A DNA stretch of 64,000 nucleotides from an uncultured Acetatifactor sp. (GCA_947625475.1 CANQOL010000003.1:65134-129133), one strand, 5' to 3'; shown: positions 1,986 to 34,682, numbered from the stretch's first letter. Notes: a model not told the origin generated them from the sequence alone. Translations and numbers: made by a program.

Positions 1986-3374
1986 GTGAGTAAGGGAATC
2001 AGCGGGTTATTCACAAAGAAGGTGAGCGACTTCGCAACGCCCTATACGCTGGGGGCGGCGGTCAGAAAGGGGGATCTGGGCACCCGGCTCTCTCTGGTCG
2101 TATGCGGAGCGGGCAACATGCTCCACAGGCAGGTGGGCAAGGGGATTCTTTTCCTGCTGGTGGAGGCCGCCTATATCTGGTTCATGATCCGCAGCGGGAT
2201 CTACAACATCTCTATGCTGCCTTCTCTGGGCTGGCTGGAGCAGGAGGAGGTCTGGAACGAGGCGAAGGGGATTTTTGAGTACACGGCCGGCCATCAGTCC
2301 ATCCTGATTCTGCTCTACGGGGTGGTGACCATATTCCTCACCGCCATGTTTGTGGTATTTTGGCGAGGCTGCTTAAAGAGCGCCTACAAGGCCCAGTGCC
2401 TGCAGGCGGAGGGAAAGCATGTCCCCGGGCTGAGGGAGGATATCCGGGAGCTGTTCAACAGCAATCTGCAAAAGCTCCTGATGACGGTCCCTCTGCTGGG
2501 AATCGTCGCCTTTACTGTATTGCCTCTGATCTTTATGATCTCCATGGCCTTCACAAACTACAGCAAGCTGGGAGACCATCTGGTGCTCTTTGACTGGGTG
2601 GGTCTGGCCAACTTTAAGAAGGTTTTAAGCTTCAGCGATTCGATCGGACAGACCTTCTGGGGCGTTTTGGGATGGACCATCGTGTGGGCTGTCTGCGCCA
2701 CGGCCTTCAACTATATACTGGGAATGATCCTGGCTATCGTGATCAACAGAAAGGGGACCCGCTGCAAGGCGTTCTGGCGCTTTTGCTTTATGCTCTCCGT
2801 GGCAATCCCTCAGTTTGTCTCTCTGCTGATCATACGCACCATGTTCAACCAGGACGGCATCGTCAATATGATGCTCAAGCAGTGGGGCCTGATCTCCAGC
2901 TCCCTGCCCTTCTTCAGCAACGCCACCTGGGCGAGGATCATGGTCATCCTGATCAACCTCTGGGTGGGAATTCCCTACACCATGATGCAGGCCACCGGTA
3001 TCCTGCAGAATATCCCCCAGGAGCTGTATGAGTCCGCCAGAGTGGACGGGGCGGGCCCTGTGGTGACCTTCTTCAAGATTACCCTGCCCTATATGATGTT
3101 CGTGATGACTCCCTATCTGATCACCCAGTTTACGGGCAATGTGAACAACTTTAACGTGATCTACCTGCTCTCCGGCGGGAATCCGACTCCGGTGGGCTCC
3201 ACCGCAGGCAAGACGGATCTGCTTGTGACCTGGCTGTATAAGCTGACGGTAGACCAGCAGTACTACAACCTGGGCGCCGTCATCGGAATACTGACCTTCG
3301 TTGTGCTGGCCATTGTGGCTCTGGTGACCTATCACAACACCGGTTCCTACAAAGATGAGGAGGGATTCCAATAA
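1986..3374 (+). CDS. Sugar ABC transporter permease, MalF-like with an extended N-terminus.
   Basis: GTG start follows the RBS AGGAGGG. The protein has multiple TM segments. An EAA-like loop is present in ...YESARVDGAGPVVTFFKITLP... Confidence 0.75.
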   Translation: MSKGISGLFTKKVSDFATPYTLGAAVRKGDLGTRLSLVVCGAGNMLHRQVGKGILFLLVEAAYIWFMIRSGIYNISMLPSLGWLEQEEVWNEAKGIFEYTAGHQSILILLYGVVTIFLTAMFVVFWRGCLKSAYKAQCLQAEGKHVPGLREDIRELFNSNLQKLLMTVPLLGIVAFTVLPLIFMISMAFTNYSKLGDHLVLFDWVGLANFKKVLSFSDSIGQTFWGVLGWTIVWAVCATAFNYILGMILAIVINRKGTRCKAFWRFCFMLSVAIPQFVSLLIIRTMFNQDGIVNMMLKQWGLISSSLPFFSNATWARIMVILINLWVGIPYTMMQATGILQNIPQELYESARVDGAGPVVTFFKITLPYMMFVMTPYLITQFTGNVNNFNVIYLLSGGNPTPVGSTAGKTDLLVTWLYKLTVDQQYYNLGAVIGILTFVVLAIVALVTYHNTGSYKDEEGFQ

Positions 3375-4243
3375 TGAAAAAAGAAGGAGCATCTGTCAAG
3401 ACAAGACGTTTTGTCAGCAATACTGTGGTGCACATTGTGCTGGCGGCTCTGGCGATCCTGTGGCTGTTCCCCATCTTCTGGGTGGTGATGAAGAGCTTTT
3501 CCACGGATATCGGGCCCTACACCACCAGATTCTGGCCCTCTGAGCTGACCCTGAACAACTATAAGAGGCTTTTTACGGACACCACGGTGCTCAATTTTCC
3601 CCGGATGTTCATGAACACCCTGATCGTCGCAATATTCAGCTGCCTGATCTCCACCTTTATGACCCTGAGCGTGTCCTACTGTATGTCCCGGCTGCGCTTC
3701 AAGCTCAGAAAGCCCTTTATGAATCTGGCCATGATCCTGACCCTGTTCCCGGGCTTTATGTCCATGGTTGCCATCTACTATATCCTGCGGGCCCTGGGGC
3801 TCTCCGAGGGCGCTATGATCCGGGTGGCCCTGGTCATGGTCTATTCCGGCGGCGCGGGCCTGGGCTTCTATGTGGCCAAGGGATTTTTTGACACGATCCC
3901 CAAGGCCCTGGATGAGGCGGCCCTTCTGGACGGCGCCACCAATTGGCAGGTATTCACGAAAATCACCATGCCCCTGAGCAAACCCATCATCGTCTACACG
4001 GTGCTGACCTCCTTTATGGGACCCTGGACGGATTTCATCTTTGCAAAGGTGATCTGCCGTGCCAATGCGGATTACTACACGGTAGCGATCGGTCTGTGGC
4101 GTATGCTGGAGAAGGAGTATATCACCAAATGGTTTACTTCTTTTGCGGCGGGCGCGGTGCTGATTTCCATCCCCATATCCATCCTGTTCCTTGTGACCCA
4201 GAAATTCTATGCGGACGGACTCTCGGGGGCGGTCAAAGGATAA
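3374..4243 (+). CDS. Sugar ABC transporter permease, MalG-like.
   Basis: ATG overlaps the upstream stop (TAATG). It has 6 TM segments. The EAA motif reads ...DEAALLDGATNWQVFTKITMP... Confidence 0.75.
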   Translation: MKKEGASVKTRRFVSNTVVHIVLAALAILWLFPIFWVVMKSFSTDIGPYTTRFWPSELTLNNYKRLFTDTTVLNFPRMFMNTLIVAIFSCLISTFMTLSVSYCMSRLRFKLRKPFMNLAMILTLFPGFMSMVAIYYILRALGLSEGAMIRVALVMVYSGGAGLGFYVAKGFFDTIPKALDEAALLDGATNWQVFTKITMPLSKPIIVYTVLTSFMGPWTDFIFAKVICRANADYYTVAIGLWRMLEKEYITKWFTSFAAGAVLISIPISILFLVTQKFYADGLSGAVKG

Positions 4244-16751: not shown

Positions 16752-19700
16752 ATGAAGATCAGACAAAGGATTGCGGCCCTGTTGTCGGCGATAACAGTGC
16801 TGACTGCGGTCTGGCAGCCTCTTGCCGTCTATGGGGCGGGGGAGACGGGACCGGGGCAGAGACAGGAGGCCGCCTGGGAGGATAACCGGGGGGAGAGCGT
16901 CTCAGGAGGGGATGTGTCCCCGGGAGAGCGTCCGTCCTGGGAGGACAGCCCGTGGGAGAGCGCCTCAGGAGGGGATGTGTCCCCGGGAGAGCGTCCGTCC
17001 TGGGAGGACAGCCTGTGGGAGAGCGCCTCAGGTGGGGATGTGTCCCCGGGAGAGCGTCCGGCCTGGCAGGATAACCCGGGGGAGAGCGTCCCGGGAGGGG
17101 ATGTGTCCGGCAGCGACGGCCGGGAGAACGGCGGGCTGCCGCCGGGACTGACCTGGGGAGGACCCGCCTGGGAGCTGGAAGCGAAAGGGGATGTGAGCGG
17201 CTCGGATGTGCCGGAGGATGCGTATCGCCCGGACACCGGCAGCTTCCTGTCCTTTATGGAGATGCCGGATGAGTATGGCATCGCGGCCATCGCGGCGGAT
17301 AAGGGGAACCTGTACGTGGGACAGAGCATTCCCTATCCGGCGGACCTGCAGTCCAATTATACCACCCACTACTACCGGATCGGAAACCGGGTGGCATACT
17401 GTATGCAGCCTTCCCAGAAGGCGCCCTCCAGCCAGGAGGTGGATATGAACTCCGTGTACAACGAGGGTGTGGTGAAGGCCCTCTATTACGGCTGGAATGA
17501 GGACGGCCCGGGGGAGAACGACAAGATGCGGAGCTTTTTGATCGCCAACGGGATCAATCTGAACGCCATGGGGGACAACGGGGCCGCCACCATGTATGTA
17601 TACACGCATATTGCGGTGGCCTACTATTATAACGGAGGGAACGCCCAGGAGGCGTTTCACGGCGTGAAAAACTGGGAAAACTCTGTGGCCTACAAGTGGA
17701 TCCAGTATCTGATCACCCTGCCGGATCCCCTGTACTCTGACGGGGACAATGTGGGGACGGACCGGAGCTTTTTCTGGCTGGCCCCTCAGATCCGGGGAGA
17801 GACCGTCCGCTATATCAGCACCCAGACCTTCCGGTTTACGGGGAGGCTGCACCTGACCTTCCCCGCCGGGATCTCCTACGGCTCCTTTACCTTTATGGGA
17901 AAATACTGGGAGGATTACACGGAGTTTTCCTCCGATGGGGCGACCGCCTATAATCTGGTCCTGGATGAGCGCTCCTTCCCGAACACCCATGGGACGCGCC
18001 CTCGGGCGTCGGGGGGAGAACACGCCAGCATTGTGGGGCAGAGGACGGACCATGCCTACGCGCTGTATTACGTGGCCTTTGACGACGGATCCCAGGATAT
18101 CGGCTGCCTGCTGGAGGTGGAGAACCGTTACAGCAGCGGCAGCGTGCCTCTGAAATGGGATCATGTGGGGATTGAACTGAGCTTTCGGAAGGTGGGGAAA
18201 AATTCCGGCCGCCCCCTGGCGGGAGCCCAGTACACCCTCTACTACGATAAGGAGTGCACAAGGCCCCTGATCGCCTACCAGTGGAGAGACGGGGAGCCGC
18301 CCTCCGCCTACGCCGGCATGCTGGAGTGGGGCGGGGACTGGAGGTATCATATCTCCACAGTTACGGACGAGGACGGCATAGGACGCTTCGACTTTGAAAC
18401 CATGGGGATTCCCACTGTGCTCTACACCATGGAGCTGGAGAACGAGCACCCGGATTTTGTCGTTTACATGAAGGAGACAAGGGCTCCGGCAGGCTGCGGC
18501 CTGGACGAGACGGTCTATCCGATCGACCTGAAACAATATTTTACAGGAGGCGGCGGGGAGAGCGGCAGGAAGGGCGCCACAGACTACAAGACCTGGAACC
18601 TGGGCACCTTTGAGGATGAGGACGGCGTCACCCTGCGTCTGCGCAAGCTGGACGGAGCCCGTCAGACGCCTCTCGCCGGAGCGGTTTACGGAGTATTTAA
18701 GGACGAGAGCTGCACCGGGCAGATCGGCACCTTCCCGGCCACCGGGGCGGACGGCAGCGCAGAGCTGCTGCTGGAGGGCGGATACAGTCAGGTCTGGATC
18801 AGGGAGCTGGAGGCCCCCAAGGGCTACGCGCTGGATCCCGCCGTCTATTCCTGGAGTCCGCAGACGAGCACCCTGGAGCTTAAGGATGAGCCCCAGAAGG
18901 GAACCATTGTCGTGTACAAGGAGGGCCTGGGACTTTCCGGCGCGGTTCGGGACGAGAAGGGGATCCAGTTCCGGTATGCTTCCCAGAGGCTGGCGGGAGC
19001 GGTCTTTGAGCTCCGGGCCGCGGAGGATATCTATGATGTGTACGGAGTGTGTCAGTACCGGCAGGGAGATCTGGCCGCTGTCCTCACCACCGATGAGACG
19101 GGGACGGCCAGGGCAAGGGATCTGTATCCGGGCGCTTATCTGGTGACGGAGACCAAGGCCCCCGCCGGGTACGAGAAGGCGCCGAAGGCAGAGAGGGTCC
19201 TGCTCACAGGCGACGGAAGCGTTCAGAGTGTGGAAAAGAGCGCCGCCTTCACGGACCTCAGAAGAACCACCTCCGTGAGAGTCGTCAAGAGAGACGCCGA
19301 GACGGATCAGCCTCTTGGGGGCGCGGTAATCGGCCTGTACGCGGCGGCCCCCATACAGGCCGGCGGGCAGACGCTTGTGTCAAAGGATGAGCTGATCGAG
19401 AGGATAGTTACCGGGGACGACGGGAAGGCTGTCTTCACCGCGGACCTGCCCGTGCAGTTTTCCTATTACCTAAAGGAGATCACGGCCCCCGCCGGGTATC
19501 TGCTGAACGGGGAAAGCTTTCCGGTCAGCCCCATGGAGGGGGATGAGACGGTCTCCATCCTCTCCGTGGCGGTCTCGGACCGGGAGCAGTACGGAAGGAT
19601 CACTCTCTACAAGGAGGGAGAGATGCTTGCCGGCTGGAACGGCAGCCAGTTTGTCTATGAGAGAGGAAGACTTGCGGGAGTCGTCTTCCAGCTCAGCGCC

Positions 19701-22700
19701 GGGGAGGACATTTACCGGGCGGACGGCAGGAGAGTCTATCGGAAGGGAGAAGTGATCGAGCAGGAGCTGACCACCGGGGAGGACGGGAGCGTGACGACCC
19801 CCTATCTCCACCTGGGTGTCTATGAGCTGCGGGAGGTGCAAACCGTCCCCGGCTATGCTCTGGCCCGGGAGCCGATTATGGTGGAGCTGAGCTATGCAGG
19901 GCAGCTGGCCCAGACAGCCTCGGCCAGCGCTGTGGCGTATAACCGGCGCCAGACGGCGGCTGTCCGGCTGCAAAAGCTGGACGCCCAGACCGGAAACCCT
20001 CTGGAAGGAGGGGAGTTTACGCTGTACGCGGATGAGGATATCAGGGACGGAGAGGGCCGTCTGATCGTGAAAAAGGATACGGCCCTGGAGAAGGTTTACA
20101 CCGACGGGGAGGGAAGGGCCGTCTTTGAGACGGATCTGCCCATTCACGCCTCTTACCGGGTGGAGGAAACGAAGGCGCCGGAGGGGTATCTGCGGAATGT
20201 GCAGGAGAGGTGGAAATTTTCCTTTGATGATCTGGATCCGGCCAGGGAGAGCGCGGAGTTTTCCCACAGCTTTTTAAACGAGAGAGTGGAGGCTGCCGTC
20301 GGACTGCAAAAGCTGGATAAGGAAAACGGCGCCCCGGTTCCCCAGGGGGATGCCAGCCTGGAGGGAGCCCGCTACGGCATCTACGCCGGAGAGGATATCC
20401 GGCATCCGGACGGACATACCGGCGTCCTGTACCGAAAGGACGAGCTGGTGGACGTGCTGGAGACCGACGCCCAGGGACAGGCCCGGATATCGGGGCTTTA
20501 TCTGGGAAGGTACTATGTGAAGGAGATCAGCCCCTCGAAAGGGTATCTGCAGGATGAGACCGTCTATGAGCTGGACTGCGGCTATGAGGGGGATCTCACG
20601 GCTCTGGTCCAGCGGGAGGCTGTGTCCCATGAGCAGGTAAAAAAACAGGCGTTTCAGCTGATCAAGGTGAAATCCTCCCAGGAGGATACGGAGAGCCAGA
20701 CCCTGGCGGGCGCCGGCTTCTCGGTTTATCTGCTCTCCGAGCTGAAACAGCTTCCCCAGGGCGGTTATGATTTTGAGAGCGCGGCTCCCGTGCCGGTGAC
20801 GGAGGACGGCTCCCGGATCCTGTACACGGATCGGAACGGGTACGCCTGCTCCATCCCTCTGCCCTACGGGACCTACCTGGTGAGAGAAACCGTGGTGCCC
20901 GGGAATCTGAAGGAGGTAACACCCTTTGTGGTGACGGTTTCGGAGCACAGCCCTCAGGAGCCACAGGAGTGGAGGGTGCTGCTGGACCGGGAATTTTCGG
21001 CCCGCCTGCGGATTGTGAAGAAGGATGCTCTAAGCGGCAGGCCCGTGCTGGTGCCCGGGGCGGCCTTCCGGATCTATGACCTGGAGCGGGAGGAATACGT
21101 CACCATGTACACCACCTACCCCTCCGTGACGGCCCACTCTGTCTTTGAGACGGATGAGGACGGAGATTTGATTCTGCCCCAGAATCTGAGCCCCGGCGAA
21201 TATCGGATCGAGGAAGCAGGAGCGCCATACGGCTATACCGTGAATCCGGAGAGCGTGACGGTACGGATTTCCTCCGGATCGGCCTATCTGACAGACCCGG
21301 ATACGGGGGAGCCGGTGATCACGGCAGAGTACGAGGATACGCCGGTGAAAGGAAGACTGGAGGTGCACAAGAGAGGGGAGGTCCTGACTGCCTTTGTCCC
21401 GGAGGACGGGGAGAAGGGAGAGAGCGCAGAATTTATTTATCAGGAGAGAGGTCTGGCCGGAGCCGTATATAAGGTGTATGCGGCGGAGGATATTCCGGAG
21501 CCGGACGGAACCAGGGACGAGAACGGCAGGCCCCTTTTGCGATATGCGAAGGACGAACCGGTGGGAACCGTGACCACCGGGGAGGACGGAACGGGAGCTC
21601 TGGAGGATCTGCCCCTGGGAGTATACCGGGTGGAGGAAGCTGCAGCGCCCCTCGGCTTTGTGAGGGATCCCAGGCCGCAGCTTGTGACCCTGTCCTATGA
21701 GGACGATCAGACGCCCGTGGTGTTCGCGGGGATCACCTTTGTGAACGCCAGACAGAAGCTGGAGCTTGCGGTGGAAAAGCGGATTGCCGGGACGGATCTG
21801 CCTCTGGCGGGAGCCCGGTTCGGCCTTTACGCCGGGGAAGATATTCAAAACGCAGACGGCCGGGTGCTGGTTCAAAAGGGAGAATACATTCGTTCCGGCT
21901 GCTCCGATGAGCGGGGAGAGATTCTCTTTGGAGCCGATCTGCCCTTTGCGGCCTATGAAATCCGGGAGCTGGAAGCGCCGAAGGGATATGCATCCCTGGA
22001 AGGAACCTGGAGCGTGGAGACAAAGCCCGGGGGAGGGGATGAGCCCTGCGTCCGGTATGAGACAAGGATAGAAAACGAACCGACCCGGCTGAAGGTCTCC
22101 AAGCGGGATCTGACAAGCGGGGAGGAACTGCCCGGCGCGAAGCTCGCCATTGTAGATGCGGCGGGGGAGACGGTGGAAGAATGGATCTCCGGGAAAGAGC
22201 CCCATTATGTGGAGGGCCTGACGGCGGGAGAGAGCTACACCCTGGAAGAGAGAAAACCGGCGGACGGCTATGTGACGGCGGAGAGTATCGTCTTTACCCT
22301 GGAGGATACGGGAGAAATCCAGCAGGTGGTCATGGAGGACGACGTGACGAAGCTGGAGATTTCCAAGCGGGATCTGACAAGCGGGGAGGAACTGCCCGGC
22401 GCGAAGCTCGCCATTATAGATGAGGCGGGAGAGACGGTGGAAGAATGGATTTCCGGTAAAGAGCCCCATTATGTGGAGGGCCTGACGGCGGGGGAGAGCT
22501 ACACCCTGGAAGAGAGAAAACCGGCGGACGGCTATGTGACGGCGGAGAGCATCGTCTTTACCCTGGAGGATACGGGAGAAATCCAGCAGGTGGTCATGGA
22601 GGACGACGTGACGAAGCTGGAGATTTCCAAGCGGGATCTGACAGGCGGGGAGGAACTGCCCGGCGCGAAGCTCATCATTATAGATGAGGCGGGGGAGACA

Positions 22701-23162
22701 GTGGAGGAATGGATCTCCGGGGAAGAGCCCCATTATATAGAAAGGCTGCCCATCGGGATCTATGTGCTCAGAGAGGAAAGCGCCCCCGACGGATATTTCA
22801 TGGCCCGGGAGATCCGCTTTGAGGTGACGGACACGCCACAGCTGCAGCAGGTGGTTATGGAGGACGAGAGAATTCCGACCCCCGCTCCCACGCCTGCTTC
22901 CACGCCAGCGCCAACCCCCACGCCTGTGCCCACACCTGCCCCCACGTCCACCCCGAAGCCGGAGGTGCTCTCCGTCACACAGGAGGGCCCGGAAGAGGAA
23001 CTCTGGAGCAACGCCAGAACCCAGGACAACGGCCAGGAGGGATATTCTATTCTGCTGACAAAGGAGGATACGAAAAGATTTCCTCTGGGAGAAGCCGCAG
23101 TGCTGGCCGGGGCGGCGGCCCTCTGGATCACGGAACTGAGACGCAGAAGAAAGAGGTTTTAG
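16752..23162 (+). CDS. Giant cell-surface adhesin (2136 aa). It has a signal peptide, 23-aa N-terminal repeats, a putative thioester domain (TED), more than 10 Cna-B/SpaA-like isopeptide-type domains, a Pro/Thr linker and a C-terminal hydrophobic anchor with an Arg-rich tail.
   Basis: Signal peptide is MKIRQRIAALLSAITVLTAVWQPLAVYGA. The YCMQ motif (matches [YFL]C-hydrophobic-[DNEQ]) is followed ~140 residues later by STQTF (TQXA-like). Recurrent motifs LxKxD...PLAGAxF/Y...(A/V)PxGY are typical of Cna-B/SpaA folds. The C-terminus has a PTPAPTP linker and the anchor AAVLAGAAALWITELRRRRKRF. Confidence 0.7.
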   Translation: MKIRQRIAALLSAITVLTAVWQPLAVYGAGETGPGQRQEAAWEDNRGESVSGGDVSPGERPSWEDSPWESASGGDVSPGERPSWEDSLWESASGGDVSPGERPAWQDNPGESVPGGDVSGSDGRENGGLPPGLTWGGPAWELEAKGDVSGSDVPEDAYRPDTGSFLSFMEMPDEYGIAAIAADKGNLYVGQSIPYPADLQSNYTTHYYRIGNRVAYCMQPSQKAPSSQEVDMNSVYNEGVVKALYYGWNEDGPGENDKMRSFLIANGINLNAMGDNGAATMYVYTHIAVAYYYNGGNAQEAFHGVKNWENSVAYKWIQYLITLPDPLYSDGDNVGTDRSFFWLAPQIRGETVRYISTQTFRFTGRLHLTFPAGISYGSFTFMGKYWEDYTEFSSDGATAYNLVLDERSFPNTHGTRPRASGGEHASIVGQRTDHAYALYYVAFDDGSQDIGCLLEVENRYSSGSVPLKWDHVGIELSFRKVGKNSGRPLAGAQYTLYYDKECTRPLIAYQWRDGEPPSAYAGMLEWGGDWRYHISTVTDEDGIGRFDFETMGIPTVLYTMELENEHPDFVVYMKETRAPAGCGLDETVYPIDLKQYFTGGGGESGRKGATDYKTWNLGTFEDEDGVTLRLRKLDGARQTPLAGAVYGVFKDESCTGQIGTFPATGADGSAELLLEGGYSQVWIRELEAPKGYALDPAVYSWSPQTSTLELKDEPQKGTIVVYKEGLGLSGAVRDEKGIQFRYASQRLAGAVFELRAAEDIYDVYGVCQYRQGDLAAVLTTDETGTARARDLYPGAYLVTETKAPAGYEKAPKAERVLLTGDGSVQSVEKSAAFTDLRRTTSVRVVKRDAETDQPLGGAVIGLYAAAPIQAGGQTLVSKDELIERIVTGDDGKAVFTADLPVQFSYYLKEITAPAGYLLNGESFPVSPMEGDETVSILSVAVSDREQYGRITLYKEGEMLAGWNGSQFVYERGRLAGVVFQLSAGEDIYRADGRRVYRKGEVIEQELTTGEDGSVTTPYLHLGVYELREVQTVPGYALAREPIMVELSYAGQLAQTASASAVAYNRRQTAAVRLQKLDAQTGNPLEGGEFTLYADEDIRDGEGRLIVKKDTALEKVYTDGEGRAVFETDLPIHASYRVEETKAPEGYLRNVQERWKFSFDDLDPARESAEFSHSFLNERVEAAVGLQKLDKENGAPVPQGDASLEGARYGIYAGEDIRHPDGHTGVLYRKDELVDVLETDAQGQARISGLYLGRYYVKEISPSKGYLQDETVYELDCGYEGDLTALVQREAVSHEQVKKQAFQLIKVKSSQEDTESQTLAGAGFSVYLLSELKQLPQGGYDFESAAPVPVTEDGSRILYTDRNGYACSIPLPYGTYLVRETVVPGNLKEVTPFVVTVSEHSPQEPQEWRVLLDREFSARLRIVKKDALSGRPVLVPGAAFRIYDLEREEYVTMYTTYPSVTAHSVFETDEDGDLILPQNLSPGEYRIEEAGAPYGYTVNPESVTVRISSGSAYLTDPDTGEPVITAEYEDTPVKGRLEVHKRGEVLTAFVPEDGEKGESAEFIYQERGLAGAVYKVYAAEDIPEPDGTRDENGRPLLRYAKDEPVGTVTTGEDGTGALEDLPLGVYRVEEAAAPLGFVRDPRPQLVTLSYEDDQTPVVFAGITFVNARQKLELAVEKRIAGTDLPLAGARFGLYAGEDIQNADGRVLVQKGEYIRSGCSDERGEILFGADLPFAAYEIRELEAPKGYASLEGTWSVETKPGGGDEPCVRYETRIENEPTRLKVSKRDLTSGEELPGAKLAIVDAAGETVEEWISGKEPHYVEGLTAGESYTLEERKPADGYVTAESIVFTLEDTGEIQQVVMEDDVTKLEISKRDLTSGEELPGAKLAIIDEAGETVEEWISGKEPHYVEGLTAGESYTLEERKPADGYVTAESIVFTLEDTGEIQQVVMEDDVTKLEISKRDLTGGEELPGAKLIIIDEAGETVEEWISGEEPHYIERLPIGIYVLREESAPDGYFMAREIRFEVTDTPQLQQVVMEDERIPTPAPTPASTPAPTPTPVPTPAPTSTPKPEVLSVTQEGPEEELWSNARTQDNGQEGYSILLTKEDTKRFPLGEAAVLAGAAALWITELRRRRKRF
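16880..17110 (+). repeat. Coding tandem repeat, 69-nt unit x ~3.5 (23-aa units GGDVSPGERPSWEDSxWESAS).
   Basis: Near-identical DNA units are visible directly in the sequence. Confidence 0.6.
22101..22892 (+). repeat. Coding tandem repeat, 264-nt unit x 3 (88-aa SpaA/Cna-B-like modules), at least 95% identical at DNA level.
   Basis: The motif ...TCCAAGCGGGATCTGACAAGCGGGGAGGAACTGCCCGGCGCGAAGCTC... recurs at 22101, 22365 and 22629. Confidence 0.6.
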
Positions 23163-23165
23163 GAA

Positions 23166-24098
23166 ATGAAGGGAAAAAAGACCGGTATCCCGGGAGCCCT
23201 GCCGGCGGCAGCGGCCCTGGCGGGGATCCTGTGGATTTTGTGTCATACGGCCCTGGCCGGGCCGGGAGAGAAGGCGCCGGGTGAAGCCCCCGGCGCCGGA
23301 GAAACCCGGGAGGGGACGGAGAGTGCTGTCCCCCAAACCTGGCTTGGGAAGCTTTTCGGAGAGGGCGCCGCTGTTCCGGCGCCCTCCGGGGCAGGCTATG
23401 GCTTTCGCCGGCCGGAGCCTGGGGATATGCGCCTCCTGGAGCGATACCGGGAGCTCAACGGCTCTGTGGAGGCCATTTTGCGGATCCCGGGGACTGTGCT
23501 GGATCACCCGGTGGTACAGACCCCCTGGAACGAGGAATACTATTTGAACCGGGATCTGCTGGGGAATCCCAACAGCCACGGCGTCCCCTTTTTGTCCGCC
23601 GGCAGCCGTCTGGAGGCGGAGGGAGAAAATATCGTGATCTATGGGCATAATATATGGAGACGGACCAGGGACGTGTTCTGCGATCTGGCCGGCTATGAGG
23701 AGCTGGATTTTTATAAGGAACATCCCCTGGTGGAGACTGTCAGCTCCGGCGGCCTGAGAAGATGGCTGATCTTCGCTTACTTTCTCACGGACACGGGGGA
23801 GGAGGACACATTCCGCTATTCGGACGTCACCGGCTTTCCCACCCGGCAGAGCTTTGAAGATTATTTGAAGGAGGTGGAAAAGCGTAATTTCCTGGAGGTG
23901 GATGTGCCTCTCGCCTATGGGGACACGCTTTTAACGCTGTCAAGCTGTTCCCGGGAGCTGTCCGGAAGCGGCACCAACCGCATGGTGGTCATGGCCAGAC
24001 TCCTGGGAGGGGACGAGGACTGGGAGAAGATCGCGGAATCCGCCCGGATGGCGCCCTGTCCCCTTCTGCCCGCCCGCCTGGGAAAAAATCTAAAATAA
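23166..24098 (+). CDS. srtB: Class B sortase.
   Basis: An N-terminal membrane anchor is present. The catalytic His lies in IVIYGHN. The catalytic Cys lies in LTLSSCS (TLxTC-like). The ATG is 4 bp after the adhesin stop, so the two genes are in an operon. Confidence 0.7.
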   Translation: MKGKKTGIPGALPAAAALAGILWILCHTALAGPGEKAPGEAPGAGETREGTESAVPQTWLGKLFGEGAAVPAPSGAGYGFRRPEPGDMRLLERYRELNGSVEAILRIPGTVLDHPVVQTPWNEEYYLNRDLLGNPNSHGVPFLSAGSRLEAEGENIVIYGHNIWRRTRDVFCDLAGYEELDFYKEHPLVETVSSGGLRRWLIFAYFLTDTGEEDTFRYSDVTGFPTRQSFEDYLKEVEKRNFLEVDVPLAYGDTLLTLSSCSRELSGSGTNRMVVMARLLGGDEDWEKIAESARMAPCPLLPARLGKNLK

Positions 24099-24242: not shown

Positions 24243-24269
24243 TTAGCACTCGGCATCAATGAGTGCTAA
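24243..24269 (+). promoter_or_regulatory. CIRCE operator (HrcA binding site), perfect consensus TTAGCACTC-N9-GAGTGCTAA.
   Basis: An exact inverted repeat lies 30 bp upstream of the groES start. A putative -35/-10 (TTTGAA...TAATAT) lies just upstream. Confidence 0.85.
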
Positions 24270-24300
24270 CAAAAAGAATGACAAGCAAGGAGGCAATCAT

Positions 24301-26228
<1,928 letters not shown>

Positions 26229-26510: not shown

Positions 26511-26539
26511 TTGACGGGGGAGCTGATCTGTGTTAGTAT
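26511..26539 (+). promoter_or_regulatory. Promoter of sRNA copy A (TTGACG, 17 nt spacer, TAGTAT).
   Basis: Read directly from the sequence. The same -35/-10 hexamers recur at 29555-29583 in front of copy B. Confidence 0.5.
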
Positions 26540-26545
26540 CTTTTT

Positions 26546-26634
26546 AGAAAAGGTGTTACCGTAAAGCAACGGTTCGCCTTGGTTGGTTATCTTCAAAAAA
26601 GCAACCTAACTTTGGCTGGTGCGGTTGCTTTTTT
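26546..26634 (+). ncRNA. Small RNA (~90 nt), candidate type I antitoxin. It is convergent with, and overlaps the 3' end of, a small hydrophobic-peptide gene, and ends at a bidirectional intrinsic terminator.
   Basis: No ATG and no ORF. It ends in the stem GCAACC...GGTTGC plus TTTTTT. A 100% identical copy lies at 29591-29678. The opposite strand encodes a 54-aa TM peptide whose stop codon lies inside the terminator stem. Confidence 0.5.
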
Positions 26635-26770
26635 GATGTTTGTCTTTTCCCTTGGTCTGCCGGATGCTGATTGTTGTGACGATGATGCTGATAACCGTCA
26701 CAACGATCCCGGCAAGTTCCAAAATCATTTTGAACACCAATGCTGCATACCTTTCGCAATATTTTCCCAT
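26606..26770 (-). CDS. Small hydrophobic peptide (54 aa), candidate type I toxin: MGKYCERYAALVFKMILELAGIVVTVISIIVTTISIRQTKGKDKHQKSNRTSQS.
   Basis: Not in the ORF track (shorter than 60 aa). The RBS GGAGGGG lies 7 nt upstream of the ATG. A single TM helix is followed by a Lys/Arg-rich tail. Its own promoter (TTGCAA-16/17-TGaTAGAAT) sits at 26862-26889 on the minus strand. The 3' end overlaps the antisense sRNA. Confidence 0.45.
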   Translation of the reverse strand: MGKYCERYAALVFKMILELAGIVVTVISIIVTTISIRQTKGKDKHQKSNRTSQS

Positions 26771-26861
26771 ATGTATCCCCTCCTTCGATACAGGAAGCTC
26801 TCAAAATGGAATCATTTTGGCAAAAGGCGAACCGCTACCCGTTTTGGTAACACCTGCCTCC

Positions 26862-26889
26862 ATTCTATCATAGTGACAGGATTTTGCAA
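26862..26889 (-). promoter_or_regulatory. Promoter of the toxin-peptide mRNA (TTGCAA ... extended -10 TGATAGAAT).
   Basis: Read from the minus strand. The predicted TSS gives a ~85-nt 5' UTR that contains a same-sense copy of the sRNA 5' motif. Confidence 0.4.
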
Positions 26890-27545
26890 GATATTACAGT
26901 AAATAAATTTTAGTTATGGTTTTATTTTATAATTTTTTTAATATATAAACATTATTTCGGATTTTTTACTGCCGGGGCGGGACGAAAAAGGAGGGAAAAG
27001 AGTGCCAGATGGGACATTCGGCGGCGAATTCAAGAAAAACTCTTGTATAAAAACGATAGATATGGTAATATATTCCAGAGAATTCAAGGGCATAATGGTG
27101 TACCACCCGATGAGGCTGCAACCTCATCGGGCAAGGATGGTAACAGGGCTACCACACGATACAGACAAGCGTCTGCGATACACACATGTATCATTATAGG
27201 GCAATTTGCCCCAAATTACAATGATTTTATGTGGAAAAGCGGCGCGGGTCTGAGCCTTCGTTGTTGTATAACGGCAAGGTGCATGGTGTGGACGCATACC
27301 GGCACCTTGTTCTTGATTTCTCACCGGGGAGGGAGGCCTGCTTTTTGGCCCTCCCGGTTTTCCCCGTGTGAGAAGTCGGAGTTTGAGAGAACTGCGGCTG
27401 TGGTTGGTCTGCGGTTCTCTTTTCTTTTTCTCCGCATTGGGGGAATTTGCCGGGCGGAGGTCTCCGATTCTCAAGTCTCTACTTTGCATCGGCCGGGAGA
27501 GCCGAAAAGGGCGCCCGGCACAATTCTCAGAAGGAGGAAAAGGAC

Positions 27546-29216
27546 ATGAGAAAGAGAAACTGGAAAAGGCTGCCTGCCCTCTTGGGAGCGGGGATACTGG
27601 CGCTGTCCGGTACGCTGGGGGCATCCGCCGCAGAGCTGAAGGATCTTTTTGATCCGGAGTACTATGCGGATACCTACGCGGACGTGGAGAGCGCCTACGG
27701 CCACGACGCGGATGCCCTGTGGAAGCATTACCAGGAACACGGCATGCAGGAGGGGCGAAATGCCTGCCCATACTTTGATGTGCGGTATTACAGGGAGCAC
27801 AACGGAGATCTGGAGGAAGCCTATGGGGACGACTGGAGCGCCTACTATGAGCATTTTTTGGAGCATGGGATTTTGGAGGGGCGCAAGGGGTCGGAGAACG
27901 GCTTTGACGCGAAGGACTACCTGAGCCGGTATGCGGATCTGCAGGAGACGATCGGGGAGGATCCGGCGGCCCTGTTTGAGCATTATATCGAGCACGGCTA
28001 CAAGGAGGGAAGGGACGGGAAGCCCGAGCCCACACCTGCACCCGCGCCTGTGGTGAGTGTACCCCAGACCCCGGCAGCGGAGCCGGAGAATACGGCGGAA
28101 CCGGAGGCAACAGAAGTGCCAGAAGTGACGTCGGACCCCACTTCGGAACCGCAGCCGACGGAAACGGCTGCTCCTGTGCCGACTTCGGCACCACAGGAAT
28201 CTGATTTCATTCCTTGGTCGGAGGCGGGACTTGAAGATCATGTGATGGATTGGCAGGATGACAATTTGGAAGCGGCAATGCGTCAGATTACTGGAATTAA
28301 AGATCGGGATATTATGCTCAGTGACGTATGGGAAGAAGAAATATTAGGACTGGCTGCAAAAAAGATTACAAATATCAGTGCGTTATCTGAATTGAAAAAT
28401 CTGAAACGGTTGGAGCTAATTAGTAATCAGATTAGTGATATTAGCGCCTTGTCTGGCTTGGTAAATTTGGAGTGGCTGGATCTCTCAGGAAATCAGATCA
28501 GTGATATTAGTGCATTGTCAGGACTAACAAATCTAAAAGATGGGTTGCGTTTGAGCTGGAATAAACAGATTAGTGATATCAGTGCACTGTCAGGTTTAAC
28601 AAAACTGATAAGTTTAGAACTGGAAGATAATCAGATCAGCGATATTAGTGCTTTGGCAGGGCTGACAAATCTTCAAGTTTTGGAATTGAATTATAATCAA
28701 ATTAGTGATATCAGCGCACTATCAGGCATGACAAAGCTGGGATATTTGTCCTTATCCGGCAATCGAGTTAGTGACATCAGTACACTGTCAGATATGACAA
28801 ATTTGTATTCTTTAGCATTAGGAGGGAACAATTTCAGCGACATCAGCGCACTGTCTGGCTTGAAAGGATTATCCACCTTGTATTTGGGAAATGATCAGAT
28901 TCACGATATCAGTGTATTAGCGGGACTGACAGATCTGGAACATTTGGAGTTATGCGGTACACAAGTCAGCGATATTAATGCACTGGCCGGATTGACAAAG
29001 ATGGATATGTTGGTTATGTCTTCTAATCCGATGCTTAGTGACATCAGTGCACTGTCAGAAATGAAAAACCTCTATTATTTGGATATAAGTTCTAATCAGA
29101 TTAGAGATATCAGTCCTTTGTCTGGTTTGGAGAATTTGTACACGGTGTTTATTTACGGGAATCCTATCACAGACTATTCTCCGGTAGATCATGTATCGAA
29201 TGTCTACAAAGATTAA
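27546..29216 (+). CDS. Secreted leucine-rich-repeat (internalin-like) protein with N-terminal ~40-aa repeats and a Pro/Thr/Glu linker.
   Basis: Signal peptide is MRKRNWKRLPALLGAGILALSGTLGASAAE. A ~40-aa repeat x3 reads FDxxYYxxxxxDLxxAxGxDxxAxxxHYxEHGxxEGR. There are at least 14 22-residue LRRs (LxxLxxLxLxxNQISDISALSGL). The RBS GAAGGAGG precedes the start. Confidence 0.65.
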   Translation: MRKRNWKRLPALLGAGILALSGTLGASAAELKDLFDPEYYADTYADVESAYGHDADALWKHYQEHGMQEGRNACPYFDVRYYREHNGDLEEAYGDDWSAYYEHFLEHGILEGRKGSENGFDAKDYLSRYADLQETIGEDPAALFEHYIEHGYKEGRDGKPEPTPAPAPVVSVPQTPAAEPENTAEPEATEVPEVTSDPTSEPQPTETAAPVPTSAPQESDFIPWSEAGLEDHVMDWQDDNLEAAMRQITGIKDRDIMLSDVWEEEILGLAAKKITNISALSELKNLKRLELISNQISDISALSGLVNLEWLDLSGNQISDISALSGLTNLKDGLRLSWNKQISDISALSGLTKLISLELEDNQISDISALAGLTNLQVLELNYNQISDISALSGMTKLGYLSLSGNRVSDISTLSDMTNLYSLALGGNNFSDISALSGLKGLSTLYLGNDQIHDISVLAGLTDLEHLELCGTQVSDINALAGLTKMDMLVMSSNPMLSDISALSEMKNLYYLDISSNQIRDISPLSGLENLYTVFIYGNPITDYSPVDHVSNVYKD

Positions 29217-29554
29217 TAGGTCAAACTTTTTTTGTAATCAGGCGCCCTGGCCTTTGGCTGGGGCGCTTTGGCCGTATATTGTTGCTCCAGCTGCATGTAA
29301 TGCTGACGGATGCATTCATCAAGTGTGGATTAGGAAGTAAGAGAAGAATATGGCGATTCAGCAATAAATTTTGCGGCGGGAAGGTCTGGATAACCTGCAT
29401 GGAGAACATTGTTTTGCGAAAGGTCACAAATGCACGGGATTGCAAAATTGCAGAAGCAGACAAAGAAAATAAAAAGAGAAGCAGATATATTTATAGAATA
29501 CAATATTCAATTCGATAAATTGATATTAAAATTTTAGAGCATTAAAAAATATTG

Positions 29555-29583
29555 TTGACGAAGCAGTTAATATGTGGTAGTAT
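29555..29583 (+). promoter_or_regulatory. Promoter of sRNA copy B (TTGACG, 17 nt spacer, TAGTAT).
   Basis: Same hexamers as copy A but a different spacer sequence. Confidence 0.45.
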
Positions 29584-29590
29584 TTTTTTA

Positions 29591-29678
29591 GAAAAGGTGT
29601 TACCGTAAAGCAACGGTTCGCCTTGGTTGGTTATCTTCAAAAAAGCAACCTAACTTTGGCTGGTGCGGTTGCTTTTTT
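29591..29678 (+). ncRNA. Second copy of the sRNA, identical over ~95 nt to 26546-26634 including the terminator. The opposite-strand peptide ORF is degenerate (27-39 aa).
   Basis: Exact sequence identity with copy A. The opposite strand retains only ...HQKSNRTSQS* with a truncated hydrophobic N-part (MSIYILFVLQSFLRKNR...). Confidence 0.45.
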
Positions 29679-29778
29679 GATGTCTATTTTTTCTGAGAAA
29701 TGATTGCAAAACGAACAGTATGTATATTGACATCCCACCAAAGCCGTAACAACATGGACACGGCATACCGCCAAAGCC

Positions 29779-29910
29779 GTGAGGACGGCATATACTCCCT
29801 CCAGGGGCGTGAGAGGACGCCGACTCTTAGCGAGGTCTTTTCGAGCTTAGAGTCGCTGCGTCCGAACCCGAGCGAAAGCGCCCCCTGGAGGGAGTATATG
29901 CCGTCCTCAC
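29779..29910. repeat. Large near-perfect inverted repeat (31-bp arms separated by 69 nt that themselves form an internal imperfect hairpin), giving a ~130-nt stem-loop element.
   Basis: Left arm GTGAGGACGGCATATACTCCCTCCAGGGGCG pairs with right arm CGCCCCCTGGAGGGAGTATATGCCGTCCTCAC. Inner pairings are GACGCCGACTCTTAGC and GCTTAGAGTCGCTGCGTC. Confidence 0.5.
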
Positions 29911-29914
29911 GGCC

Positions 29915-29962
29915 CCCATCCTGCCTCCCAACCCATCCTGCCTCCCAACCCATCCTCAAACC
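29915..29962. repeat. Tandem repeat, 17-nt unit CCCATCCTGCCTCCCAA x 2.8.
   Basis: Read directly from the sequence, immediately 3' of the palindromic element. Confidence 0.6.
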
Positions 29963-34336: not shown

Positions 34337-34479
34337 AAGGGACGCCCCGGGAAAAGGTATTTTGTGCGCCCGGGGCATTGACAAGAGACCGTTATGATGC
34401 TATGATGGAGCAAATGCGGCAGGTTAATGAAATAGGGTAGAGGTTGCGCGTTTTATCAGTAGCTTTCCGGATGCGTCAG

Positions 34480-34682
34480 GCGCAGAGGACGGGAAGGGAA
34501 AGGAAAACGCGCCGAAAGAGGCGGTGCCTGTTCACCGCATCTTGGGCATGGGGTTAAGAGCCACATGACTGTCATCTGTATTTTAGATGGGGCGCTATCG
34601 GAAGAGAATATCAGAGGGAAGGTTTTGGAGAAGAGATTTCCCGGATATCAGTCGTCGGCGCGTTATCGTGCCGGCGTTTTTG
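34480..34682 (+). promoter_or_regulatory. Probable lysine riboswitch (L-box) with an intrinsic-terminator expression platform, in the dapA-dapB leader.
   Basis: Conserved L-box blocks are present: GGAAAGG, GCGCCGAAAG, ACTGTCA and TGGGGCGCTATC. The terminator GTCGGCGCG...CGTGCCGGCG plus TTTTT lies at 34652-34682. The element sits upstream of lysine-biosynthesis genes. Confidence 0.5.

Follow-up and report, generated by a model that had tools for sequence, protein, structure and literature searches.

We identified, in a 64-kb stretch of DNA from an uncultured Acetatifactor sp. (hereafter the window), a module that probably belongs to a new family of type I toxin-antitoxin (TA) systems of the 3′-overlap class. 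It lies directly downstream of groES-groEL (24259-26228) and consists of a gene for a small membrane peptide on the minus strand (the putative toxin) and a convergent gene for a small RNA (sRNA) on the plus strand (the putative antitoxin). Judging from the relatives collected, the family is large and apparently undescribed, and is found in gut Lachnospiraceae, on chromosomes as well as on integrated mobile elements. Sequence comparison establishes the reality of the peptide gene and the selection acting on it, the conservation of the sRNA gene with its promoter and terminator, the complementarity of the two RNAs, the anatomy of the family and its association with mobile elements. A preliminary description, made from the window alone, had placed a type I TA-like locus with the 3′-overlap layout of txpA/RatA downstream of groEL; the location is as given, and the layout is now supported by comparative evidence (selection on the peptide, a conserved sRNA, a perfect duplex, mobile elements, tandem arrays, and solo sRNAs). 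The parts of the module are listed below (ORF, open reading frame; SD, Shine-Dalgarno).

26511-26539, plus strand: sRNA promoter, −35 TTGACG, 17-nt spacer, TG-T-TAGTAT (consensus scan)
26546-26636, plus strand: predicted sRNA of ~91 nt, candidate antitoxin (single-sequence and consensus folds; ends predicted)
26593-26636, both strands: bidirectional intrinsic terminator with 14-nt arms and a 16-nt loop (inverted repeat; 44-nt transcript overlap)
26606-26728, minus strand: family-conserved peptide core, Met15 to stop, MILELAGIVVTVISIIVTTISIRQTKGKDKHQKSNRTSQS, with one transmembrane (TM) helix and a basic tail (alignment; synonymous-only codons 7-24)
26621-26638, minus strand: HQKSNR codons CAT CAA AAA AGC AAC CGC, which double as the 5′ terminator arm of the mRNA and contribute to the antisense overlap
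26729-26770, minus strand: N-terminal 14 codons, MGKYCERYAALVFK, equivalent to the separate leader ORF of relatives and fused in frame here (frame analysis)
26777-26785, minus strand: SD sequence AAGGAGGGG, 6 nt upstream of the ATG (read from the sequence)
26792-26797, minus strand: anti-SD element CUUCCU (predicted SD pairing; minimum free energy fold of the window mRNA)
26826-26854, minus strand: mRNA 5′-terminal motif GGTGTTACC-N11-CGGTTCGCC, a same-sense motif that also starts the sRNA
26862-26889, minus strand: peptide mRNA promoter, −35 TTGCAA, 16-nt spacer, TG-n-TAGAAT (consensus scan)

A conserved peptide gene and its convergent RNA

The minus-strand ORF (26606-26770) encodes exactly the 54-amino-acid peptide of the preliminary description, and the good ribosome-binding site and extended −10 promoter that it had assigned to this gene are both present (AAGGAGGGG at 26777-26785, 6 nt from the ATG; TTGCAA-16-TAGAAT with an upstream TG at 26889-26862). 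An ORF of 54 codons is not significant alone, and is raised above chance because it is conserved in relatives; a lack of such conservation had been named as refuting the reading, and we found the ORF conserved in 106 relatives, 318 clusters, and 75 loci. The 106 relatives, of 40-61 amino acids, came from a word-indexed protein search; none contains a Pfam domain, and the few that are named are “hypothetical” proteins of Lachnospiraceae. The full profile search extended the family to 318 clusters at 50% identity (E up to 1e-3; 135 at E up to 1e-10), and a genome scan of reference genomes gave the 75 loci (L numbers below), nearly all of them in Lachnospiraceae metagenome-assembled genomes from rabbit, mouse, and other guts.

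The alignment of the family has a near-invariant core, G-IVVTVISIIVT-ISI-Q, plus a C-terminal HQKSNR. Across 66 length-matched genes, the variation in core codons 7-24 is almost wholly at third positions and synonymous (for example GTT/GTC/GTA/GTG, AGT/AGC at 37:29, and ACG/ACA/ACT), which argues for purifying selection on the protein; in addition, distant members of the family retain the peptide although their DNA diverges. As judged from this codon pattern, the 54-amino-acid ORF is a real gene under protein-level purifying selection. Unlike the TM core, the HQKSNR codons show zero synonymous changes in the 66 sequences; since these codons are the terminator arm itself, the conservation of the tail must be at least partly an RNA or DNA constraint.

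The peptide was described as having one TM helix followed by a basic tail, and the predictions agree: hydropathy over 19 residues is 2.44 in the window peptide (2.84 in the consensus), the tail charge is +5 (+6), and AlphaFold2 models a single helix over residues 2-45, with a predicted local distance difference test score of 94-97 over the core. Hydrophobic, shorter than 60 amino acids, and with a TM segment, the window peptide resembles type I toxins in size and character. The likeness to Fst and TxpA that had been proposed holds for this architecture and does not extend to the sequence, which has no homology to Fst, TxpA or catalogued toxin families. Scans of the peptide against Pfam and NCBIfam at E up to 10 returned nothing significant (including no match to Fst_toxin or related families), nor was there a significant peptide match in PHROGs or PADLOC; the best library matches (TrbK, E 0.011; holin PHROGs, E about 0.005) were rejected as TM-like noise. 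We also observed an imperfect inverted repeat in the TM-coding region (26669-26708, GTGACG...CGTCAC, from the V-T...V-T codons); relatives vary freely at codon 17, and the repeat therefore probably results from the repetitiveness of the peptide sequence and is not an RNA stem under conservation.

The plus-strand RNA that was expected to overlap the 3′ end of the peptide gene has its own promoter-like sequence (TTGACG-17-TAGTAT with a TG, 26511-26539), and extended −10 promoter-like sites thus converge from the two strands. Among the 70 loci aligned, identity per column reaches about 90% or more over the whole ~390-bp module, between the two −35 boxes; the borders are sharp, and the flanking sequences are unrelated. 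Conservation of the sRNA −35 (TTGTTGAC) is about 90-100%, and the sequences diverge directly beyond it; at the other end, the 70 loci keep the −35 and −10 columns of the peptide promoter and cease to be similar a little upstream of its −35. Since identity is bounded by the two −35 boxes, the conserved unit is the two convergent promoters and the sequence between them.

The predicted mRNA (~264 nt, 26856-26593) and the predicted sRNA (~91 nt, 26546-26636) can form a perfect 44-bp duplex over the last 44 nt of both (−78.2 kcal/mol), the base-pairing looked for in a type I TA system. Within this overlap (26593-26636) are the final 11 codons of the mRNA with their stop codon, and its terminator hairpin; the antisense RNA thereby covers the end of the ORF, as in the TxpA/RatA-BsrG/SR4 class. 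The terminator is shared between the two genes, as had been noticed (14-nt arms TCAAAAAAGCAACC and GGTTGCTTTTTTGA, 26593-26606 and 26623-26636), and contains the stop codon of the peptide (TAG, 26606-26608), placed at the junction of loop and 3′ arm; 99.7% of its cells are paired in 68 sequences.

The predicted sRNA is made up of an A-rich 5′ tail, a hairpin with a UU/U (U-rich) internal loop (26550-26581; folding z −4.2), a variable linker, and the terminator. Its proposed pairs are standard in 98.7% of cases in the 68 sequences, against 36-55% for slid controls, and its substitutions are almost all wobble-compatible. With a covariance model built from the sRNA alignment (R1), a convergent sRNA scoring 73-134 bits is found beside essentially all peptide genes, those of the distant mobile-element subfamilies among them; the window sRNA scores 117.3 bits at 26537-26645. 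At the level of sequence, the RNA thus has the two marks of a type I antitoxin, a promoter of its own and conservation beside the peptide gene. A scan of the whole 64-kb window against Rfam at gathering score found no family at the module; the only match was a lysine riboswitch aptamer elsewhere (34430-34605, plus strand, 118.7 bits against a gathering score of 30). A local Rfam scan at E up to 10 gave chance-level matches (Thr leader, microRNAs) and a sub-threshold alignment to LLnc147. Neither Rfam nor Pfam, NCBIfam, PHROGs or PADLOC holds a catalogued toxin, antitoxin-RNA, phage or defence family for the module.

Leader ORF, translational control and shared 5′ motif

In most relatives, a strong SD and an ATG open a separate leader ORF in another frame, about 10-14 codons long (range 8-16; consensus MENKVKGKHYWCSE), and the peptide usually follows behind it as a core of 40-43 amino acids; AGGAGGGGATACAT stands ahead of the start codon in 34 of the 70 relatives. 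Of the 70 loci, about 50 have a leader whose stop codon overlaps the start of the peptide or lies directly against it: for example, the GGAATGATT junction gives an ATGA overlap and a peptide of 40 amino acids, and the CTATTGATGT junction gives TGATG and a peptide of 43. Where the leader stops earlier, the peptide frame gains an ATG at that spot; since the peptide-frame ATG tracks the leader stop in this way, the overlap itself is arguably selected. The two frames are fused in only 6 of the 70 loci, and the window's 54-amino-acid form is therefore atypical. Compared with the consensus, it has an additional G behind the ATG, and TAA has become TAT at two positions; the same in-frame fusion occurs in the closely related strains L092 and L093.

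The leader of the mRNA is predicted to close its own initiation region. The CUUCC/GGAGG helix is retained in consensus folds of 61 and 62 leaders, and shows no covariation because it is nearly invariant; it is enclosed by a long-range leader helix (GCCUUUUG with YGRAAGGU), in which 36 one-sided substitutions preserve pairing. In L045, L067, L051, L069, and L042, a palindromic hairpin is inserted exactly over the start codon of the leader ORF, about 60-90 nt upstream of the IVVT codons. These hairpins have three unrelated sequences (ATATGTG-GAGTG-CACATAT, ATGTGCG-ATACT-CGCACAT, and CGCGAA-CACGG-TTCGCG) and look like an extra stem occluding the start codon that has arisen more than once.

Both RNAs also begin with the same motif in the same sense: the pattern GGTGTTACC-N-CGGTTCGCC has 3 matches in the window, against 0.00 expected. 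Variants of the motif are common to both RNAs of a locus (AGCG in the L077 group, GCUA...CACC in L086, and GGG...AGCCC in the sister module of L024, see below), and a permutation test of the matched motifs is significant (0/2000), resting on few independent events. The mRNA motif contains one compensatory change (GUUACC/GGUAGC to GUUGCC/GGCAGC, in L049 and L054). As a secure hairpin the leader motif folds weakly (z −1.8 in the window copy to +0.3), and we keep it as a sequence motif only. A DNA operator is an unlikely source of the shared motif, because the substitutions are transitions that preserve RNA wobble pairs and would worsen a DNA palindrome.

By analogy with characterised systems, the module would work as follows. 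The minus strand would give the ~264-nt mRNA for a one-pass, basic-tailed membrane peptide, presumably the toxin, and the plus strand the ~91-nt sRNA, presumably the antitoxin, from its own promoter. The two RNAs may make their first contact through the complementary 16-nt terminator loops (as in txpA/RatA and bsrG/SR4); the duplex would then extend and be cut by RNase III, and the mRNA, without its protective 3′ hairpin, would be degraded. Translation would be braked independently by the upstream CUUCC, pairing with the SD inside the long-range helix, and in most relatives ribosomes would reach the peptide ORF only through coupling from the leader ORF. The solo sRNA gene 3 kb away (see below) could supply extra antitoxin. 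Of this scheme, transcription, toxicity, neutralisation, the involvement of RNase III, and the coupling are inferred.

Tentatively, the module may even be a type I TA design of a distinct kind, in which leader-ORF termination-reinitiation is combined with a 3′-end antisense RNA, plus 5′ motifs that co-change in four lineages; we regard this as possible, with the odds against it. The motif reads GGUG...CGCC, AGCG...CGCC, GGUGC...CACC, and GGG...AGCCC in these lineages. If the reading is true, such co-change would imply that one RNA-binding protein or RNase handles both RNAs, or that, with their 3′ ends already tethered, the RNAs make a second contact from hairpin to hairpin.

Distribution, solo sRNA genes and alternative readings

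Several genomes hold three or more copies of the module, which is often situated at the end of a contig. Two subfamilies, P0049 and P0101, are found inside integrative elements, with large serine recombinases, Tn916-type Int/Xis, a rolling-circle Rep, an XRE regulator, an Eco57I-type restriction-modification enzyme, and a TIR protein as neighbours; the window copy and L085 sit between housekeeping genes. Complete modules also form head-to-tail arrays (three copies in L014, 2173-3162; two in L007, 2570-3162; two in L068, 2943-3583) with a spacing of about 424-451 bp, and the copies in these arrays differ slightly in the terminator loop. A blastn search of the module against annotated plasmid and phage records gave no match, and IMG/VR viral contigs contained no relatives of the peptide.

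A second copy of the sRNA gene lies about 3 kb downstream in the window, where it stands alone:

29555-29680, plus strand: second, solo sRNA gene (direct repeat; promoter scan; R1)
29555-29583, plus strand: solo sRNA promoter TTGACG-17-TAGTAT (promoter scan)
29596-29622, plus strand: hairpin motif of the solo sRNA
29637-29650 and 29667-29680, plus strand: terminator arms of the solo sRNA
29650-29693, minus strand: remnant of the putative toxin gene, of which only about the last 10 codons (…HQKSNRTSQS*) match

The solo copy is 91% identical to the module over 148 nt (29546-29693) and 98% over a 111-nt core that includes the entire overlap segment, scores 120.7 bits with R1 (29581-29689), and is also present in the related strain L092; on the toxin side, similarity ends about 12 nt beyond the terminator. 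L036 is an independent case, in which the sRNA is kept and only 19 toxin codons are left. Read from these sequences, the putative toxin gene was deleted and the sRNA kept in two independent cases (window/L092 and L036). A 38-amino-acid ORF beside the solo copy was rejected as a second toxin: it matches in the tail only, has no family TM core (hydropathy 1.50), and is without leader motif or ribosome-binding site. Mobile-element carriage, tandem multiplication, and peptide loss with RNA retention are typical behaviour of TA modules.

In L024, a main-family module is accompanied at a distance of about 450 bp by a sister module (3330-3730), whose TM peptide, of 32 amino acids, is a different one (MDILGLIAVLSFGLTCFGIGYSIGKDSNKTQK). 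The layout is the same: there is an extended −10 promoter, an anti-SD, a terminator that overlaps the end of the coding sequence, and a convergent sRNA (39.5 bits). The two RNAs of the sister module start with GGG-N-CUACC...CGGUUAGCCC; the outer stem of the hairpin is altered on both sides (GGUG/CGCC to GGGUU/AGCCC), and the fold is kept.

Several observations weigh against a type I TA system as the reading of this module. No homology to any validated toxin was found in the library scans, and the roles of toxin and antitoxin are presumed for peptide and sRNA by analogy. Genera share the module at high nucleotide identity, for which recent horizontal spread, and not constraint, could be part of the reason. 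Within the main family (68 sequences), there are no two-sided changes in the sRNA structure, and the sequences are too much alike for it to score above the shuffle control; the support for the RNA structure is thus one of compatibility, not proof by covariation. At 44 nt, the overlap is much shorter than in RatA/txpA (about 120 nt), and as it lies wholly inside two stable terminator hairpins, pairing could be slowed. We rejected a further co-evolving contact close to the ribosome-binding site, since cognate, non-cognate, and shuffled pairs score alike (−24.9, −25.1, and −25.7 kcal/mol). Finally, the fused form of the window departs from the family norm, and its regulation and activity may differ.

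The peptide could instead be a conserved, non-toxic small membrane protein (e.g., a modulator of a membrane complex), with the sRNA as an ordinary cis-antisense regulator and no TA function. The TM core (G-IVVTVISIIVT-ISI) is unusually invariant, which could mean a specific partner and not generic membrane damage, and the housekeeping surroundings of the window copy and L085 fit such a role. We consider it unlikely, since the tandem arrays, the carriage by integrative elements, and the repeated loss of the peptide with the sRNA kept are TA-typical, and the layered repression of translation suggests a dangerous product.

That the sRNA acts mainly in trans, or binds a protein through its 5′ hairpin, with a terminator that is merely shared and a solo copy that is a normal independent gene, seems to us quite improbable. 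Its 5′ hairpin is as conserved as the overlap, the same hairpin is modelled by the sub-threshold LLnc147 alignment, at least two strains have kept a solo copy intact, and the motif that also heads the peptide mRNA suggests a shared factor; but the sRNA is always convergent with a family peptide gene or its remnant, its linker is variable with no conserved seed, and the LLnc147 score (21.7 bits) is far below the threshold of 127.

A non-coding repeat or miniature inverted-repeat-like mobile element with a fortuitous ORF, which the multiple copies, sharp borders, very high nucleotide identity across genera, and frequent position at contig ends might suggest, is effectively refuted by the synonymous-only pattern of the TM core. 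The distant members that retain the peptide while their DNA diverges also speak against it, as do borders that coincide with the promoter −35 boxes and have no terminal inverted repeats or target duplications.

Other features were observed around the module. The border of the module (L092 5270, window 26502) is the exact point at which L092 and the window cease to be similar. On the far side, L092 has ABC-transporter and LytTR two-component genes in place of the groEL of the window; either recombination broke the sequence at the module, or the metagenome assembly is chimeric at a repeat. Immediately upstream of groES-groEL, the window encodes a 2136-amino-acid repeat-rich surface protein (16752-24098, plus strand), followed by a sortase gene; its SpaA/pilin-type domains are taken from the annotation of the syntenic L093. 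A gene for a 589-amino-acid leucine-rich-repeat-like protein (27447-29216, plus strand, twelve 66-nt repeats) sits exactly between the full module and the solo copy, which are direct repeats, and the same arrangement is seen in L092. Beside the solo sRNA there is a 32-nt perfect inverted repeat (29776-29807 and 29882-29913, 74 nt apart), and after it a 17-nt tandem duplicate, CCCATCCTGCCTCCCAA, at 29915-29948; these repeats (29776-29948) have no match elsewhere in the window or in the fetched loci.

Comparison with known type I systems

Lachnospiraceae are among the most abundant gut commensals, and a type I TA family in them could matter for mobile-element stability, stress tolerance or persistence, and genome rearrangements. 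According to a review of Clostridia, homology searches detected known type I toxins in hardly any clostridial species, and the systems of Clostridioides difficile are the sole ones characterised (PMC6563280). Our literature search found no account of type I TA systems in Lachnospiraceae, of this family, of its peptide motifs or of LLnc147. The family also flags small genes and sRNAs that annotation leaves unnamed or “hypothetical”.

By function, the closest systems would be txpA/RatA and bsrG/SR4 of Bacillus subtilis (also bsrE/SR5 and yonT/SR6), which share with the module a small one-pass membrane peptide (a toxin there), a convergent antisense RNA from its own promoter over the mRNA 3′ end including the end of the ORF (PMC3531473, PMC3834814, PMC8594479), complementary terminator loops as the likely first contact, a partly sequestered SD, and residence in integrated mobile DNA. 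RatA/txpA is known for its 3′ overlap, RNase III dependence, and antitoxin excess (PMC3531473), and SR4 for a contact at the terminator loop and dual action (PMC3834814); in Gram-positive type I families the antisense RNA is always on the 3′ side (PMC8594479). Neither the peptide nor the RNA is similar in sequence to those of B. subtilis, where the overlap is about 120 nt (44 here) and the sRNA 180-220 nt (~91 here); and, unlike the B. subtilis systems, most members here have a separate leader ORF and both RNAs share a start motif.

The preliminary description had also likened the locus to par of the Enterococcus faecalis plasmid pAD1 (Fst/RNA I-RNA II). Convergent transcripts, one bidirectional terminator, and a small membrane peptide are indeed common to both. 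In par, which stabilises mobile DNA, complementary 5′ repeats (DRa/DRb) block the ribosome and the overlap stops short of the ORF (PMC4147584), whereas here the overlap enters the coding region and covers 11 codons, the shared 5′ motif is same-sense with no DRa/DRb-like complementary repeats, and no second pairing site is detectable. Because par needs complementary 5′ repeats, absent here, the likeness is limited to convergence and the shared terminator.

The nearest taxonomic precedent is found in C. difficile, also in the class Clostridia, whose type I TA genes are convergent and overlapping and lie in mobile elements that they help maintain; the toxins there have 34-53 amino acids, hydrophobic in the N-terminal part and, at the C-terminus, charged and rich in lysine (PMC6563280, PMC7699646). 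The modules CD2517.1-RCd8, CD2907.1-RCd9, and CD0956.2-RCd10, with their prophage relatives, have the same layout. The family described here differs in belonging to Lachnospiraceae, in not having been found on phage or viral contigs, and in showing here no link to CRISPR arrays or cyclic di-GMP riboswitches; for the toxins, the sequence comparison covered the libraries scanned, which gave no family-level match. Among RNA families, the sub-threshold alignment to LLnc147 (RF02573, a Lactococcus lactis sRNA) models the same 5′ hairpin followed by a terminator, with a 5-bp outer stem, a UU/U internal loop, an ACC/GGU inner stem, and a ~10-nt loop; at 21.7 bits against a gathering score of 127, the sRNA does not belong to that family.

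The leader ORF recalls hok/sok/mok of plasmid R1 and enterobacterial chromosomes. In most relatives it has the only strong SD and its stop overlaps the peptide start (ATGA or TGATG), a layout reminiscent of mok-dependent hok translation (PMC9841398), and an anti-SD element is predicted to close the initiation region of the leader. However, mok has 70 codons and overlaps hok extensively, whereas the leader here has 8-16 codons and ends at the peptide start (or, in the window, is fused to it); and Sok pairs at the 5′ leader region, whereas complementarity is confined here to the 3′ end. If the distinct design suggested above is true, leader-dependent toxin synthesis would resemble the mok/hok principle, for which no Gram-positive family is on record. 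Within ~390 bp, this compact system would combine a codon stretch that doubles as a terminator arm with leader-ORF coupling and matched sense and antisense 5′ motifs, and it is the latter two features that could lift it beyond another family of a known kind.

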